Program-made: the position numbers and the translations under genes | Notes under the pieces: generated by a model | Seen by the model: the letters and a program-made list of their open reading frames with translations, nothing else | Told to the model about the DNA's origin: nothing | Databases searched by the model: none | Shown here: positions 1,748 through 60,200 of the stretch, piece by piece | Position numbering within the stretch: position 1 is the stretch's first letter | How the letters are laid out: each line of letters starts with the position of its first letter | Assembly: GCA_964016885.1 (NCBI GenBank) | Contig: OZ024745.1 | Coordinates: 107,074,001-107,138,000, forward strand | DNA length: 64,000 nt | Direction of reading: 5' to 3' | Source: Eledone cirrhosa | Taxonomy: Eukaryota

Positions 1748-2210
1748 TATAGCGTCTAAAGTATGGAAACTACACAACAGACAGAATAACTGAATTATTG
1801 AATAAATAAATAAATAAATATATTTAAACAAGAAAACAAAATTATAAACATATAAATATTATATCAATAAGAGAGCGGCAAGATTACCAGCTTGATAAGG
1901 TTTCGAATCACTTAAACAGATTCCAACATCACCGAAGGGGAATTGGAAAAAGACAAAGACTGGACAGTATGACTCCGCAGAAAATGAGGGACTTTACGCT
2001 ATGGGTCAGCCTTTACGAGACCTTTCCTCGAACATCAATGTTTGCTTGTTTTTTCCCTTTCCCCTTATCTGCATATACATCTATCTCTCACCCACGCTTT
2101 CTCATTCATTTTGTGTCTCTTTCATTCACTATCTTATTCTGTCACCGAATTTTCACAAACTTTACCAAACAATTTGTCTCCATTTTTTTTATTTACTACA
2201 CATACAGATA

Positions 2211-2256
<46 letters not shown>

Positions 2257-2668
2257 ATGCACACGCACAAACACACACATACACACACAGATACAACATA
2301 CACACACACACATACAGACAGACAAATACACACGCATACATACGTTCACTTTTACACGCCCACGCATTTACAGAAACATGTACCCATCTTTGTATATTTG
2401 TGTATATATTCTTCTTTCCTTGTGTTTTATTCGTAGGTGTATAATGAATATACGTGCATAGGGTATATATGTGTGTGTAGGTGCACGTGGTGTATGCGTG
2501 GAACAATATGTATAGATACAAACTGTATAATTTATTATTCATGAAATAGTTTCATAATATTACTTAGAGAAAGTTTTACACTTTCCATGGTAGAATCAGT
2601 AGAGCCGGACAAAACCACATATTTTCTCGAATAATGTTTGTAAGCTGCGCATATACATACATATAATT

Positions 2669-2738
<70 letters not shown>

Positions 2739-2743
<5 letters not shown>

Positions 2744-2946
2744 AACGAGTAGGACCCCGACGGCTGAGCTCAAGCCGTTTCGACGGCTAATTCTGGACGG
2801 CTAATAATGTCCAGAATTAGCCGACGAAACGGCTTGAGCTCAGCCGTCGGGGCCCTACTCGTTCCTATTACCCACTCTACTACCCTAACTATTGAGTACT
2901 TTGGTGTGTTATGGTCCACTTGGTTCCTTACCACATTTCCTTCGTT
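2739..2946 (+). mobile_element. Fold-back element in (TA)n with 3' half of a hammerhead, copy 1
   Basis: ~60-bp inverted arms spanning 2739-2868; GAAA-cggct..agccg-TC; shared tail tacccactctactacc..ggttccttaccac. Confidence 0.85.
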
Positions 2947-3112
2947 ATATATATATATATATAAACACGTGCGCGCGCACATACACACACATATATATAT
3001 TTATACATATATATACACACGCGCGCGCGCATATACACACATATATATATATTTATACATATATATAAATATAAATATATATATATTTATTATTTATTAT
3101 AAGAACCGATTA

Positions 3113-3165
3113 AAGTTTAAGCAAAGAATCGCTGCTTTCACCCTTAACGGTATCTTCTGAAACTC
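3113..3165 (-). ncRNA. Hammerhead-like fold with variant core CAGAAGA
   Basis: rc: gagttt CAGAAGA t accgttaagggt GAAA gcag..ttgc TT aaactt; related fragment at ~16413-16460. Confidence 0.5.
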
Positions 3166-3201
3166 AGAATTCCTAATTAGCTGTCTTCTATTTGCTCTAC
3201 A

Positions 3202-3718
<517 letters not shown>

Positions 3719-4130
3719 ATATATATATATATACATTTATTAAAATAACAGATTATTATTATTACTATATGACATAACCTGTGTATTTGCTGGCATGGGC
3801 GTGCATCTGTGCGCTTATGTTAGTTGATATATTAAATTATCTATATTTATCTCCAAATCACTGATTTGTCGAGCAAACTTGTCAAAACCACTTCTAAAAA
3901 AAATTTTTTTTGGGGTGTTAGTAGGCGTCAGTCATCTTACCATCCCATTCCTTCTAACTAGCCTCTGTGTCACGTGATTGATTCTTTAGAATCGGCCATT
4001 TGACTTGAAGCAGTGAGAATTTCGGTACATAGAATCCAGTCCTCGCAAGCTGTTCGATCTACCGAATTATTATTATTTTTATATGAGCCGCCAGTGTCCG
4101 CGCATTGCCTGGAGACTTAACTGAGAATAG

Positions 4131-9970: not shown

Positions 9971-12900
9971 TCACCTACAGGCTGATATATAGAGAGAAGG
10001 CCCATTCACTCGGGCGATTCTCGCCTCTTTCACCCACCTTTCATAAAACTTGCTGGGGTAGAGCACCTCTCTCTCCATTCTGATCCTTCTTCTAATATGG
10101 TACTTGAAAAAAAGGACCAGTTGTTGGCCGGAGAGAAAATAGTCTGACCTCAGCCCATTCAAACTCGTCCAACATAGAACCTCTTTCGCCATAGCTATCA
10201 CACAGAGGAAAACCGCCTCTCCTTCGTTTTTGAAGGGGGGAGGCGGTTTGATCGTGACAATGTACTCGGTGGTCAACCGGATTGGTGCCACCCGCGACAG
10301 TAGTCGTTCCACATAGCCCCACAGGTCAGCAACGCCCGGGCAGTGTACGAATGCGCACGCGACGGTTTCTTCGTCACGCACGCATCTCGGAGAGATCTTC
10401 TTCGAGTGTTCCCTACCCGGGGACCCGTCTATGTAGAGCTTGTCCCGAACGGGTAGAGCTCCTAGGTAGCAATGCCAAGCCAGGGACTTTTGGAAATTGT
10501 CCATCGGTCCCGGGCCAAACGTCTTCCCGAACAGATTGGCTAGCTCGTCTTCTTCCATGCCCAGAGCCTCTCCGAGAGCGTCGTCGCACTTGCTGCGCAC
10601 TTGCTGCGCACGAATCCTCTATAGAATGTTGAGGTTGAGTCTCCACTGATTGCCGTATCCGCTTGTCAGAGGGCTGTGAGCGCCTGGGCACATTCAATAT
10701 GCCAGTCGCCCATTTTTTTCGGTATTTGCTTGACCCAGGATTGCAGCTCGGTGAGTGAGACGAGTCTCGGAAAGGCTCGCCTCACAAAAGGGACCCACAC
10801 CGGCTGACCGGTGAGGAATACCTGGAGGTGCCGTAGCCTTAATGCGTGTCTACGCATCTTCAGCCACGGCATCCCCAGCCCTCCGTTCGAAGGGTGTTGA
10901 CAGCAGATGGATCTTCTCACAAAATGGGCCCGCTTCTTCCAAAGGAATCGGAAGAGCGCGCGCTCTATTTTGGCGAGTCTTTTCGCTGGGCAAGGCACGA
11001 CGGTCAAGCGGTAGTAGATGACGGACGCTATATAAGTGTTCGCCACCTCCGCTCGACCTTTCAGGGATAGTTTGCACTCGGCCCACTTCTGTGCGAGTGC
11101 AAACACCCTGTCCGTTACCTCGTCCCAGTTTTTCTCCACCTGGAGGTCTGGTCCGAACTAGACCCCGAGTAGCTTCACAGGTCCCTCCGTCCAGCGTCCG
11201 ACGACGCCGTCGGAGGGCATCGGTTTGCCTCTCTACGCTCCGAGTTGCAAACCAACGGACTTGTCCCGGTTCAGCTTGGCTCCTATAAACCTTTCGTATT
11301 CCTCCAGTAAGGTGCCGATCTGCCCGATTTCCGAGGCGCACGACACCATTACCGTCATGTCAGCGGCGTAGGCCAACACCGCCTTCCGCAATCCCAGTTC
11401 CAAGGGGATTCCCTGCAACAGCTCCAACTTCCGCAGTAGTGGCTCGAGAGCCAGCACATACATAAGGGAGGAGAGAAGGCATCCCTGTCGGATGGATCGC
11501 GATTTGGAACGGCTCCGAGATGTAGCCGTTCACCTTGACTCTCGAGCAGGTGTTGCTGCTGTGCATTGCAGCAATCCAGCCCCTGAAAACGGGTCCGAAG
11601 CCTGCCGCTGCGAGCACCGCATCCAACTACCGATGGTCGACCCTATCGAACGCCTTAGATTGATCCAAGTTGATCAGGGCCCCACCAAAGCCGGATTCGT
11701 TCCCTACCCTCTCTACGATGTATCGCATGAGGTGGAGGTTGTCGTGTATGGACCTGGACGGGATTGCGCATGTCTGCGCTTCTCCCACCAGGTTCCCGAC
11801 GACAAGCGCCAACCTCTTCGCTAACACCTTGGCCAAAATCTTTAACTCAGTGTTTAGCAGAGTTATGGGCCTGAAGTTATCTATGTCATGCCCCTTGTTC
11901 TCGTCCTTCCTCACCAGCGTGACTATACCCTTGGTCACATAACTGGGAATTCTCCCGTTCTGTTGCCAGTTGTAGTAGACCGCCTCAAGGAGATTGGGGA
12001 ACAAGTCCGGCATCGCTACATAAAGTTCGTATGGTAGACCATCGAGACCGGGAGATTTGCGTTTGCCGCATTGGCTCAGCCCTTCCCCTATCTCTGAAAA
12101 CGGCCTTTCGCACGACTTCGCCTCCCCGTCCGAGAGCTGCGGCAGACCGTCAAGCTATAGACCGAAATCCATGGCCTCACCCGGCCCGCCGCCCCTCCCG
12201 AACAGTCGTGCAAAGCGCCGTTGAAAGGCCGCGCACATCCGCTCAGGTTCAAGGATCACGCGTCCATCCTGGTCCTTCAAAGACCGAATCGTGGACTTGT
12301 TTCCACTTTTTGCCTCTGTCACTCGGGCCCAGCTAACAGCTTTGGCTCCCTCGTTACCAAGAGCACGTATATTACTCCTGACAACGCAGCCCTCGTGCTT
12401 CACGTCAAAGAACTCATCTAGGGCCGTTCTTGATGCCAGCACGCCGGCCACGTTGCCACTCCTAATTGACTCTTCTACTCTATTTGTTAATTCCCTTTCA
12501 GTTCTATTCCTATCTGATGCTAATTCCTGACTAAAACCTATCGATTCTATTCTAATTTCTCTCTTGAGAGAGCCCCACCACCTGCTGTTGACAATGGCCC
12601 TCGTCAACCGCTGCTTAACTAGTGTGCTAATCCGCTTACTGTAAGCTTTGTTTGTCGGTAAGGACAAGTTTAGCTTCCAGTAACCGGGTCCTTGTCTATG
12701 GGTTCTATCAAGGTTGACCACTCCGGTCACCAACTTGTGATCCGAATAGTCAACCATGAACATTCGTGGACAGCTTAATATGTCCCTATCCTTATTTCTA
12801 ACTAGGAACCTATCTAGGTACGACCTAGATGTTCCGCTGCGATTAGTCCACGTCCACAGTGGCACAGTCGGAAAATCTAGTCGATATCTATCGGCCAGAT

Positions 12901-13417
12901 CAAATCGGCCGATTAACCGTTTGAGGCTGTTACACCCCCCTCTATTGGGACATGCCCCTACATATTCCCAACGTGCATCCATGATACCATTCCAGTCCCC
13001 CACTAAAAGCAAGGAGCGAGATGTTCCCGGAAAAGTCTCTAGGCGTTGGAAGAAGTTCGGTCGCGGTGTCCCAGATGGGGCATACGCTGCCACCAGCCTG
13101 AAGGCTCCACCTTCACTACTGCCGAGGTCTAGAACCACCAGTTGGCCCTCCGGGTCCAGGAGTAGCTTCTCTGTTGCGAGGCCCCGGTGTTTTCGCAGCA
13201 GAACGACCACCCCGCCCCCACTCCCCGGCTGACAGTGAGATGCGTAGATCTCAAAGTCGTCGAAGATGGGGGCCAGTTGGTGCTCGCTGCTGATCCTGGA
13301 CTTGCAAATAGCTATCACATCCATTATGTGCGACCTGCGGTCATTTAAGAGTTTGCCCTGCTTCCAGGACATTCCCAGGCCGCGCACATTTAAACATCCA
13401 ACTCTTATAACAGCCAT
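9971..13417 (-). pseudogene. Tx1-type ORF2 (APE endonuclease + reverse transcriptase), disrupted
   Basis: CLNVRGL, GDWNG, SYLDRF, SDH; FRPITLLNTELKILAK, LDQSKAFDRVDH; YADD mutated to YAAD; frameshifts and stops. Confidence 0.92.
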
Positions 13418-13484
13418 GTTGGTGGTGAAGACTTTAGAGTGGAGAAAAAGGAAAAGACACCTACCTGGGGACCAGGCTGCACAA

Positions 13485-15286
13485 TTACCACGGGGGTATC
13501 GGCGGGTTGTTTGGTGGGGTGGTGGTTTGTGATGTGGTGGGGACGTCACTGTGTGGTGGGGTGTGGGTGTTTGGTGGGGGAAGGGTGTCTGGGGTGGTGG
13601 TGGGGAAACATTTCAAGAGTACGCGGTTGCTAGGTCTAGTACAGGGGTTCCCCACGTCCTTGGGAAAGTTCTGTTTGAACATTGCGTAGGTGTCCTTTGG
13701 GACACTAATCATTTTTAAATGCGGTTTAGTCGCCGCGTTGGTGAACATTTTCCTTTCGGTTTCCACCGCAGGGTCTTTGTCTATTGTTTGCACAAGTGTT
13801 TTGTTGTTTGTGTTGATGTATGTATACTGTTTTTGTTGTGTTGTGTTTGTTTTTGTTTGTTGTTCTTGTGTGTGATCGCGTTTTGTAGTATGTGTTATGT
13901 TTTCGGGAGGGGTGGGTTCTTTTGTTTGTGCTAGTGTCTGTGTTATTGTTGAATTTTTGTTGATGTGGTGTCTTCTTTTCTTTCTTTTTTACCGGTTGAA
14001 AGGGTTCTCCCTCGTCGTCACTGGGTGTCCTCGTCGTAAGATGTCCTCTTCCGTGTTGTTGGCGAAGGGTATATTTTGGGGTTTTGTTGTGGTTGCTTTT
14101 GTATTTGTTTTAGGTGGGGAGGGGTTGGGTGGGACAGTGTCTTGTGTTGTTATTTTTTCGTATTGTTGTGGTTGTTGTTGTGGTGGTGGTTTTGTTGTTT
14201 GTGTGGGGTGGGCAGAAGCGTCTTTTTTTGGTGGGCATTTAAAAGGGGACAAGAAGCCCTCAGGTGACCACTTCTTGAACAGTGGCAGCATGAAGGCCGC
14301 CTGCCCTCAACAGAAATGTTTATGAAGGCGACTCCATCCAGGGACACACGCTGCGGTATTCTTGCTATCCATTCTGGTCTCATTTGGACCAGAACTTCAA
14401 GACTATTACCGCCGAATACGCCCCAGTGGATTCGTCTATCGAAAGGATTGTGTCCACATCTTCTAAGAATCCCGTTAGCACCCACCAAATGCTCACATTT
14501 GGCCTGATGCCCGAGATTCTTATCTTTTGAGTTCTTTCCCCAAATATGTGGGGAAAAGGTGTATGCTTTGGATACAATTGGCGACACAGAATATTTCCGT
14601 GTCGCCAATTCATCTTGCATTAAAACAGATATGCCTCGATACAGTTTCCCTTTCTGTATGAAAGCGATATCCTTCCAGGCACTACTAAGGACCAGCTCAA
14701 TTTCGCTTTGGGACAATTGAGCCGGTTTCCTAGTCGCGTTCGAAACTGTCATAAAAATTACGGTTCTGAGGACTGTGTCCCTTCTAATTTCTTCGGGGCA
14801 GGTAATTGTGAATTCCCCATCTTCCCCGTACTTACACAATCCCTTGCTTCTTTCAGCAATTTCTTGGCATTCGAGATGTCCAGTGCCTTGTATGTCTGCG
14901 TTTCTCGAACCGCCTGTGGCTGTGGGTCCGTTTTCTTTCGTGTTGTTATCATTGTTGTTGTTGTTATCCGTGTTGGCTTGCTTTTTTCCTTTGTTGGTGT
15001 TGTCATTATTGCTGTTGTTGGTTGTGTTGTTATTGTCATTGTTGCTGTTGCTGGTTGTGTTGTTATTGTCATTGTTGCTGTTGCTGGTTGTGTTGTTATT
15101 GTCATTGTTGTTCTTGTTTGTGTAATTGTTACTTTTGGGGTTTTCACCCATTTCCACAATTTTTTCTTTTGATTCCGTGGTGTCTTTTGCGGGGGTGAGG
15201 AGGGAAGGTTTACAGCGTTGTGCTGCTACCTTCTCTCTATCACTTTCCTTGAGGGGCGTGGCATGCGTCGTGTTAATGGCGTCCAT
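13485..15286 (-). pseudogene. Tx1-type ORF1 (Asn-rich repeats, CCHC knuckle, Pro/Thr/Lys tail), frameshifted
   Basis: ISVEGRRPSCCHCSRSGHLRASCP = Cx2Cx4Hx4C; ORFs 14150-15286, 13989-14291 and 13485-13793 overlap or lie in series. Confidence 0.8.
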
Positions 15287-48429: not shown

Positions 48430-49027
48430 ATATGAAAATTAGAGATAAAACTCAATTGGAACCCTGTAACTATTAAGCTCCAAGTATAAATACTGAGCCG
48501 ATTAATAATATATAGTAAGAAACACAGTAAACCGTGTGTCTAAAATTACAAGGGTTGAAAAACCACATTTGTTTGAAATATTTAACCAAGAAGCAGACAG
48601 AATGATAAAATAAAAATATATTATTATACATTATTATACAAACCGCCTCAATAACCATTATATCTCTCGGACAGATTATCCCTAATCTGTTTCGCCCTGA
48701 GTGTGTTTGTAACAGATAATCCCGGGCTTCATCAGCGAGAGAATCTGATTACATGCCACAAACACTATTTGCCAACGTTCACACAGAAAGATGAATTTGT
48801 CACCTCGTGCTCCGCTAGTCAAACGTGGTAAGCGTGTATTGAATAGAAATAACAATCCAACACACACAACTTAATAAGCTCAACTTGTGAGGGAGCAGAA
48901 ATATATATGAAAATTAGAGTTAAAACTCAATTGGAACCCTGTAACTATTAAGCTCCAAGTATAAATACTGAGCCGATTAATAATATATAGTAAGAAACAC
49001 AGTAAACCGTGTGTCTAAAATTACAAG
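48430..49027 (-). mobile_element. Hammerhead element as a partial tandem (475-bp period, ~123-bp terminal direct repeat) in (TA)n
   Basis: 48430-48552 is nearly identical to 48905-49027; internal HHR. Confidence 0.88.
48664..48741 (-). ncRNA. Canonical type I hammerhead ribozyme (GUC site)
   Basis: rc: ctctcg CTGATGA a gccc..gggc GAAA cagatta ggga taatct GTC cgagag. Confidence 0.9.
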
Positions 49028-52888: not shown

Positions 52889-53376
52889 TACATATATATA
52901 TATACATATATATATACATATATAAGTATATACACATACATGCACAGACACACACATATATATATATCAATATATATATGTTTGTATGGATGTACCTTCA
53001 TACACACATACATACATACTTTCATACATACACACATTCATACATATGTACACACACAAAGCCATGTCGCTCCGGATTTATACATACATGTATATATGCA
53101 AGGGGAGCAATATTAATTCCATGCAGGCCCGCAAACAAACACATAGGAAAACGATAATATAACATTAAAAATATGAAATTAATATAATAATTTCTAAAGT
53201 TTTCATCAATTACAAATGTGAAATCACATTCTGGTACATACTTTCAAAATCCGTTCACAGTGGTATAGCCTAACACTCAGATAGTGTTAGACTATACCAA
53301 ACTGTGCATCTATGTATACGTACACATTTGCTAACATCTAGATATATATGACATGTGTTGAAAGATACCAAACTGT

Positions 53377-53387
53377 ATATATATATA

Positions 53388-53433
<46 letters not shown>

Positions 53434-54018
53434 ATTAATTATACTATTTATGGTTATGTAAATACATGAAGTCCATAACATAACGCTCTGCATTTCCAAT
53501 ACTCTTAATATTTTTAATGCTTGCACTATTTTTAATGCTTATATCATTTCTCCACACACAGACTATAACAATCATAAAAAGAATTTGCCACCAGATCAAC
53601 CAACCTAACACTCTTGTTTACCTACCTAAGTGCTTCTACTACACGTAACTCTCTGCCACACTACATAAACAAGACGCACGTGCTTGCCACACATATAACA
53701 TTTGCACTATATAACCGCTTATTTTCATGTTGTATTTTAACCTGTATTTTTGATTTTTGATTGTACCTTTTAATATGAATGTAATCTCTAAGTGTGTACT
53801 GCCACTCTAAATGCTGTAATGAATGTTGACCCACAATATTTGCATATGTATCTGTATGTCTCTTGGGTGAAAAGGAGGTCATATAACTGTCCATTCATTA
53901 ATAAATTGCTCCGAAGAATCCAAACCTCGGTTTGGAGGAAACAGTTGTAAGCACAAAAATGTTTTGAACAGTTCTTTGATTCTTATATTTCATATATATA
54001 TATACTGTATATATATAT
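53377..54018 (+). mobile_element. PLE-pLTR-like hammerhead element with TA runs at both ends and an apparent 12-bp TSD
   Basis: ataccaaactgt at 53365-53376 and 54019-54030; HHR near the 3' end. Confidence 0.7.
53907..53953 (+). ncRNA. Type I hammerhead with CCGAAGA core variant
   Basis: tgct CCGAAGA a tccaaac ctcg gtttgga g GAAA c agtt GTA agca. Confidence 0.7.
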
Positions 54019-54227
54019 ATACCAAACTGTGCACCTATGTACACATTTGCTAACATCTAGATATATATGACAACATGTGTAGAAATCCATACGCGCATAC
54101 AGATACATTTTAACGTATACAGTCACACACTCAGCACACACACACACATACATTTCTTTTCTCCTTCATTTCACTTCTTTTCTCTTTTCTACTTTATCTT
54201 TTATTGTATTATTTGCAAATTTAAGGA

Positions 54228-58800: not shown

Positions 58801-59134
58801 AATCATCGTCCACCAATCCCACATCCATCATTCTTACACAAACATCTGAGCTTTCACTAGAACCACCACACACTACATAACCACCAAGGGTACCACTTCA
58901 ATACCATCGCTGTCGCCACTACTACCACCAACACCAACAACACCATGGCAAGCACCGTTAATTCCACTACCACTATAGCAGCGCCACCACCAACTCTATA
59001 ACAACAAGGCCATAACGCCGTTACGACCTCTACCACATCCATCTCCAACGATAAAACCACCATTACCAAAGCATTAACACTACTATCACAACTACACCAA
59101 CACCGACACCGCCACCAGAAAAGGGACAAAACCA

Positions 59135-60200
59135 CCACTCTAACACCACCATCATAACACCACCACTCTAACACCACCAGCACCACCATTCTAACAGCAC
59201 CATTCTAACACCACCACCATAACACCGCCACTCTAACACCACCACTCTAACACCACCACTCTAACATCACCACTCTTAAACCACCACTCTAACACCACAA
59301 CTCTAACACCACCACTCTAACACCACCACTCTAATACAACCACTCTAACACCACAACTCTAACACCACCATTCTAACACCACCATTCTAACACCACCACT
59401 CTTAAACCACCACTCTAACACCACCACCCTAACACCACCACTCTAACACCACCACTCTAACACCACCACTCTTAAACCACCACTCTAACACCACCATCCT
59501 AACACCACCACTCTAACACAACCACTCTAACACCACCACTCTAACACCAACATTCTAACACCACCACTCTTAAACCACCACTCTAACACCACCACCATAA
59601 CACCACCAACACCACCACACTAACACCACCACTCTAACACCACCATTCTAACACCACCAATCTTAAACCACCACTCTAACACCACCACCATAACACCACC
59701 AACACCACCACTCTAACACCACCACTCTAACACCACCATTCTAACACCACCACTCTAACACCACCACTCTAACACCACCACTCTAACACCACCATTCTAA
59801 CACCACCACTCTAACACCACCACTTTATCACCACCACTCTAACACCACCACTCTAACACCACCACTCTAACACCACCATTCTAACACCACCACTATAACA
59901 GCACCACCATAACACCACCACTCTAATACCACCATTCTAATACCACCATTCTAACACCACCACTCTAACACCACCATTCTAACACCACCACCATAACAGC
60001 ACCACCATAACACCACCACTCTAATACCACCATTCTAATACCACCATTCTAACACCACCACTCTAACACCACCATTCTAACACCACCACCATAACAGCAC
60101 CACCATAACACCACCAACACCACCACCATAACAGCACCAACACCACCACTCTAACACCACCACCATAACACCACCAACACCACCACCATAACAGTACCAA
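59135..60200. repeat. 14-bp minisatellite (ctctaacaccacca)n with higher-order variants
   Basis: Direct observation. Confidence 0.92.

Follow-up and report, generated by a model that had tools for sequence, protein, structure and literature searches.

Here we report that the TA runs flanking a Penelope-like element (PLE) in Eledone cirrhosa were likely made by its insertion, and that the family to which the element belongs normally splits (TA)n that is already in place. Whether PLEs make or choose their flanking microsatellites has been hard to test, because target-site duplications (TSDs) become invisible within repeats. In this family the question can be answered: the duplication is fixed at 12 bp, the TA was mostly there before insertion, priming often leaves a footprint of realignment and recopying, and a birth of TA runs, supported by an empty allele, is rare. 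The window, to which our coordinates refer, is the whole stretch of 64,000 nt that was analysed (contig OZ024745.1, positions 107,074,001 to 107,138,000).

A TA-free target in the window

The insertion is bounded by the 12-mer ATACCAAACTGT, which starts at 53294, 53365 and 54019 and has no fourth occurrence within the window. Between the second and third 12-mers lie 54 added nucleotides, a 561-nt insert (53431-53991) and 27 further added nucleotides. On the plus strand, the left 12-bp TSD (53365..53376) is followed by the new (AT)5, ACC, (AT)18, ACTGT (53377..53430); beyond the insert, the new (AT)6, ACTGT, (AT)5 (53992..54018) leads into the right duplication (54019-54030), which together with copy B of a ~70-bp unit (54018-54085) is likely the original downstream DNA. 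In all, (AT)n accounts for 68 nt of the added letters and target scraps (ACC, ACTGT, ACTGT) for 13 nt; every scrap can be found, together with the TA next to it, in the opposite junction. Read directly, these letters bear out the initial annotation, which had described a hammerhead-type element bounded by a 12-bp repeat with TA runs and scraps inside both ends. Its interpretation of the repeat as a target duplication is likewise supported, since the family TSD as measured by the marker-distance test below has the same length. Copy A of the unit (53294..53364, plus strand; aligned over 53293-53363) is 85% identical to copy B over 74 aligned nt, with substitutions and indels of 6 and 3 nt. The unique left flank has no second match anywhere in the genome.

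An empty allele is present in contigs of runs X1 and X2 (one sample; two of four runs) that span the junction. They carry the left flank and copy A up to 53353, followed by 30 of 30 letters of 54073-54102, that is, by copy B from 54073. This allele holds a single ~70-bp unit, with TATA at the cut and no TA run, so that neither added stretch occurs in it and all 81 letters (68 nt of TA, 13 nt of scraps) are new. With the 12-bp TSD lying outside the TA, the proposal that the runs at this site are products of the insertion holds. The X1/X2 sample may be the assembled individual, in which case the empty allele would represent its second haplotype. No run contig showed the filled allele (depth 0 at 53364-53378), which hence comes from the assembly; run X3 gave no coverage of the window junction, and RAD-seq X4 and X5 gave none at the junctions of the window or of L094, a second locus where the allele comparison yielded a contig identical to the assembly that stops ~20 nt into the TA run.

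The initial annotation had also taken the copy at 53294 to preserve the empty site. The TA-free site is indeed there in copy A, in agreement with the empty allele; the greater age implied for the duplicate is not borne out, given the single unit of that allele. As the duplicate begins at most 1 nt from the cut, it most likely arose in the same event as the insertion, and was probably made then rather than before. Copy A is thus likely the target plus 59 nt of re-copied downstream sequence. Further upstream, at 53040-53206, the two alleles differ by 7 listed substitutions and 1 indel, with none in the next 147 nt, a possible conversion tract.

The element family and its two ends

The insert is a short inverted copy of a Hydra-clade PLE family. 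Its main piece (53460..53991, plus strand) is a pseudo-LTR fragment, 96-98% identical to dozens of copies, whose terminus is what we call the "short" 3' end; a short overlap joins it to an inverted piece of the "long" 3' end (53431..53466, minus strand), and positions 1-37 of the insert, used as query, match inverted and ~135 nt past the short end of other copies. Family copies stop at these two fixed points, ~170 nt apart, at TTTC|ATATA (short) and ACT|AT (long), each of which precedes an AT spot of 2-5 nt. A typical insertion is inverted, with one short and one long end facing outward, and the window copy is of this type. In the continuous element both end sites are internal (81 short and 8 long internal sites were found), so the TA is not a tail carried from the donor, and we rejected donor-tail transduction on this ground. 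One family end motif is matched exactly at 519 places in the 3.0-Gb genome. Both initiation sites are followed by AACTGC, which is seen again at an internal (AT)4 spot (internal sites of L016 and L034) and is a candidate protein-binding or template-boundary signal.

Positions 1864-3894 of locus L042 encode YRDD and IIY..YVG, a reverse transcriptase (RT) with a C-terminal GIY-YIG-type endonuclease as in PLEs of the EN+ group, and at L034 a pseudo-LTR fragment flanks the RT/endonuclease frame. The frame is split in the copies read (178 + 677 aa in L042; 610 aa in L034). Pseudo-LTRs in tandem or inverted, with an optional tail, also agree with EN+ PLEs. Protein atlas neighbours at 0.94-0.98 carry RVT_1, GIY-YIG and HTH_animal. 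Pfam and PDB sequence searches with the family protein returned nothing significant. The Hydra motifs are present: RWR (RWK-like), DKT in place of DKG, CNCRANKTC (the CxCX5C linker), CNLC (CxxC) and CQH (CxH), with no CCHH in the endonuclease and one cysteine between IIY and YVG. At least 10 nt of TA lies on at least one side of 114 of 121 insertions, consistent with the (TA)n insertion of Hydra elements. Judged by its motif set and TA insertion, the family belongs to the Hydra clade. The available text of Craig et al. 2021 (PMC8557442) gives these C-terminal EN+ PLEs the same features (RWK-like, DKT, CxCX5C, CxxC, CxH, no CCHH), together with a pseudo-LTR hammerhead, an inverted 5'-truncated partner and insertion into (TA)n, which it treats as the target. 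Membership in Naiad or Chlamys, whose TSDs are there described as often not discernible, was rejected, since these have an N-terminal endonuclease and no canonical hammerhead, and the endonuclease of our family is C-terminal.

A minimal type I hammerhead-like motif lies at 53907..53953 on the plus strand, with a TGCT/AGCA stem I, the core CCGAAGA...GAAA and a near-palindromic stem III; cleavage is predicted after 53949. The core differs from CUGANGA, and the topology appears to fit a type I minimal hammerhead, a form described for PLE pseudo-LTRs in the accessible part of PMC6765202. The motif recurs across the family, and core CCGAAGA with an intact stem I occurs in the two commonest forms, which make up 154 of 197 family motifs. 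Rfam returned no hammerhead match at gathering score or at E<=10. A type III hammerhead using an upstream GTC was discarded because its stem I fails to pair. Elsewhere in the window, a second hammerhead-like element of related type (3590-3715; core CTGACGA) terminates in a short TA run, and a hammerhead-like core CTGATGA...CGAAAC on the minus strand (~48690-48780) has flanks that look complementary.

Duplications and stutters at family insertions

Family TSDs were measured by a marker-distance test, in which the distances from both ends to a non-TA marker base near the end are summed. The 72 two-ended rows comprise 25 that were unselected, 31 selected for an early marker on one side and 16 more; in selected rows only the unselected side was tested. 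A 12-bp duplication touching both ends, with nothing added, was found in 32 of the 72 (two with one mismatch, and two possibly one locus assembled twice). Another 8 gained 2 nt and 4 gained more, namely the window copy (+81, by hand), L261 (+52), L128 (+12) and, doubtfully, L119 (+4). The remaining 28 rows gave no clear reading (25) or were dropped as spurious (3, first-base mismatch only). Additions therefore amount to 0-2 nt in 40 of 44 resolved copies, and the gains at L261 and L128 may reflect a longer duplicated run that expanded afterwards. A longest-shared-word test for inner TSDs did not discriminate (24 against a null of 13-24). At L149, which lacks a TA tail, a TSD of 12-14 bp touches the element and is confirmed by a paralogous empty site, the only clean one among the fetched loci.

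Outward short ends repeat the element's last 7-11 nt, one to four times, in 19 of 71 cases (2 of the 71 being misclassified internal sites), and such repeats are absent from all 81 internal short sites (p=1.2e-7). Long ends stutter in 13 of 109 outward cases against 0 of 8 internal ones, a comparison with just 8 controls (p=0.6). In each subfamily the stutters match that subfamily's end variant. Their position is between the primer and the body of the element, so that their template, judging from strand polarity, should be element RNA. This pattern points to a short internal template that is copied more than once, with realignment of the kind seen in telomerase. The initial annotation had suggested reiterative, telomerase-like TA synthesis or slippage: priming can indeed be reiterative, yet as a rule the idea fails, marked targets mostly gaining 0-2 nt. 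Later slippage from TATA alone is unlikely, because the internal 8-nt AT seed never exceeded 10 pure nt in 93 copies.

Origin of the new TA and comparison with known systems

We somewhat favour a reading in which repeated abortive priming wrote the new TA and scraps at a TA-free site before the element joined. The endonuclease would cut both strands 12 nt apart, and each 3' end would serve as primer for reverse transcription at an AU-rich spot inside the RNA (short TTTC|ATATA, long ACT|AT). The enzyme may then copy a few bases, release and realign, the AU spot alone being expected to yield (AT)n. Because (AT)n can pair with itself, the two tails could anneal and serve as templates for each other, which would account for the ACC and ACTGT scraps, and the left end would also copy 59 nt of downstream target, probably through host repair, to form the 70-bp duplicate. 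At ordinary TA targets priming would usually succeed at once, adding the 12-bp duplication and a further 0-2 nt. For another PLE, initiation at internal sites and cutting of both strands have been shown in vitro, according to the accessible part of PMC11167929, and we count the gain at L261 (+52 nt) as a second large one in favour of abortive priming. For the new TA this reading draws on one locus, the letters of which would fit either the RT or a host polymerase as writer. That a non-AT primer causes idling was rejected, as 7 copies with a GT-ended primer joined with nothing added.

A host polymerase is the strongest competitor, possible in our view though clearly less probable than abortive priming. 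After the same 12-nt endonuclease cut, polymerase-theta-type end-joining would have primed repeatedly on DNA of the flanks, be it the TATA at the cut, the (AT)4 within the unit or arrays close by, and so have produced the TA, the scraps and the 70-bp duplicate; slippage would later have lengthened the runs. The scraps and the 59-nt re-copy suit this enzyme equally well: the re-copy is DNA-templated, the occurrence of a long flank duplication at 1 of 121 insertions, the window copy, marks the event as abnormal, and the available text of PMC5068794 describes POLQ inserts copied from within ~20 bp of the break, with single-base priming and the other end as template. It leaves unexplained the stutters at element ends, with their element RNA template, and templates of 4-8 nt are short for a product of 68 nt of pure TA. 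We consider it improbable that an earlier lesion left a short TA run between two 12-mers, into which the element later inserted with duplication of ACTGT(AT)5-6ACCA (19-21 bp). That string does stand at both junctions and the family strongly prefers TA, but three events would be needed at one spot, 19-21 bp differs from the family's 12 bp, (AT)18 and (AT)6 stay inside the duplication with the last ACTGT unexplained, and the empty allele contains no such run. Equally improbable is a derived empty allele, from which the element was lost through recombination between copies A and B, so that the ancestral state would not be on view and the duplicate might be older. Its 5' part is A and its 3' part B, as in a crossover, and the absence of differences over 53207-53353 stands against 7 substitutions and an indel over 53090-53206. 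Only 4 differences are informative, however, and 5 of 16 random patterns resemble one crossover; the duplicate starts at most 1 nt from the cut, and compared with the empty allele both indels are deletions. Even with a recombinant empty allele, copy A is without TA and the main local claim survives.

The generalization in the initial annotation, that these elements routinely make TA at TA-free sites and build much of the genome's TA load, we regard as very improbable. It was assessed on 121 complete insertions, made up of the top matches of the insert search and the first 100 of the 519 end-motif matches, a sample neither random nor chosen by flank. The window locus and L261 speak for it, and 45 of 69 two-ended copies sit in pure TA, where additions cannot be seen. 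A 12-nt stagger, however, implies at least 12 nt of TA beforehand in the pure-TA copies, and would require a TA-free target to show a complex outer TSD. Outer matches of at least 8 nt were found at 6 of 85 copies with TA on both sides (shuffled mean 1.1), five of them low-complexity; a complex duplication outside the TA runs is confined to the window copy (1/85), and the other two-sided copies, where the initial annotation had said to look for outer TSDs and had named their absence as refuting, have none (0/84), so that the generalization is already largely refuted. The 36 insertions without TA on both sides show no outer TSD either, their single TSD being the one that touches the element at L149. 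In 10 of 11 paralogues of the host repeat at L142, a TA run occupies the insertion point, and 101 of 121 copies abut another microsatellite or a TA-tailed repeat (a count that has no matched control). The family thus normally splits existing (TA)n, and with marked targets mostly gaining 0-2 nt it lends no support to PLEs as direct authors of the bulk TA load. We infer a direct gain of ~12-14 nt per insertion, which over the whole family would come to no more than some tens of kilobases; 7% of the window consists of pure TA.

Telomerase adds repeats processively to chromosome ends from a dedicated RNA, copying a short internal template, realigning and copying it again. The family resembles it only narrowly, realigning and recopying for up to 4 cycles, whereas its repeat addition is occasional and abortive, uses no dedicated template RNA and is followed by copying of the element. 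We did not class it with telomerase, because its insertions are interstitial, the template is the element's own RNA and resolved copies mostly add 0-2 nt (40/44). PLE and telomerase RTs stand in a sister relation (PMC8557442, available text), and the stutter footprint is a genomic hint that telomerase's sister group is capable of limited repeat addition on an internal template; it also indicates which RNA sites and DNA substrates an in vitro test could use.

Poseidon PAc of Anolis (Frangieh et al. 2024, PMC11167929) is similar in that both strands are cut and extended at an AT-rich target and two internal RNA start sites define the tail. The PAc start site is not homologous to the target, whereas both sites of our family have AU micro-homology to TA, and repeat addition is not reported for PAc in the accessible part of that paper. 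In LINE 3'-repeat slippage (UnaL2 TGTAA, I-factor TAA; PMC3747384, as far as available) the RT also slips on a short repeat at initiation; there the repeats are terminal RNA tails, while here the template is an internal spot of 2-5 nt and two ends prime. Polymerase theta insertions share flank-derived scraps and repeated priming between two break ends, but are host DNA-templated and do not cover copies of element RNA ends (PMC5068794, accessible part). Relative to the Hydra elements in the available text of PMC8557442, the 12-bp TSD, the end stutters and one resolved case of de novo TA are additions, and the initiation sites lie ~170 nt apart as against a tail of 30-40 bp. TA preference is already known for Hydra; the 12-bp Hydra TSD, end stutters, allele-supported TA birth and cruciform targeting by PLEs were not found in the literature searched, mainly non-subscription, and supplements of PMC8557442 (file S1) may list TSDs.

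The TA-free target lies in a 21-bp imperfect inverted repeat (53256..53306) whose 3' arm holds the 12-bp target, the cut ending 1 nt from the foot. Its DNA fold (-16.4 kcal/mol, z -6.5) was equalled by 0 of 200 shuffles, and a position within 8 nt of such a foot is shared by 0.4% of complex DNA. This arrangement, noticed post hoc at one locus, hints at hairpin recognition. Cruciforms are among the substrates of some GIY-YIG nucleases (PMC10287932), and the secondary structures that expanded TA repeats adopt are cut by SLX4 with MUS81-EME1 (PMC8599992), as stated in the available portions of these papers. At the rebuilt L149 site no hairpin is significant, 75 of 100 shuffles folding as well, and the cuts in 45 pure TA runs are evenly spread (9, 10, 7, 11 and 8 by fifth), lending no support to a cruciform. 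We think it rather unlikely, and offer only tentatively, that the Hydra endonuclease recognises extruded hairpins or cruciforms instead of TA sequence, which would account for its use of both (TA)n and this TA-free inverted repeat, and that an RT idling on its internal AU template, much as a primitive telomerase might, founds TA microsatellites that become targets for later PLEs. If true, PLE insertion and TA birth would form a self-feeding loop in TA-rich genomes.

Several minor observations concern the junctions and the window. At L034, L037, L064, L112, L146 and other loci, ends of other repeat families, some hammerhead-like, meet the PLE family across a single TA run, and TA tracts look like hubs of nested insertion. 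At L038 (600-720 and 3740-3800) a unit of TTAAAA plus TA recurs several times on each side of the insertion, perhaps target-derived or starting with element letters. Five 5'-truncated copies (L029, L043, L094, L144, L233) carry a tiny inverted short-end piece (~9-13 nt), as if second-end priming had stopped almost at once, and at the 5'-truncated junctions of L178, L194, L204 and L206 the flank finishes in a few letters that are reverse-complementary to those following the 3' end. Within the AT-rich window, 10001-15000 reaches 46-56% GC and is possibly coding or another element, and 59131-60176 is a C/A-rich satellite of 75 copies of the 14-nt unit ACCACCACTCTAAC.
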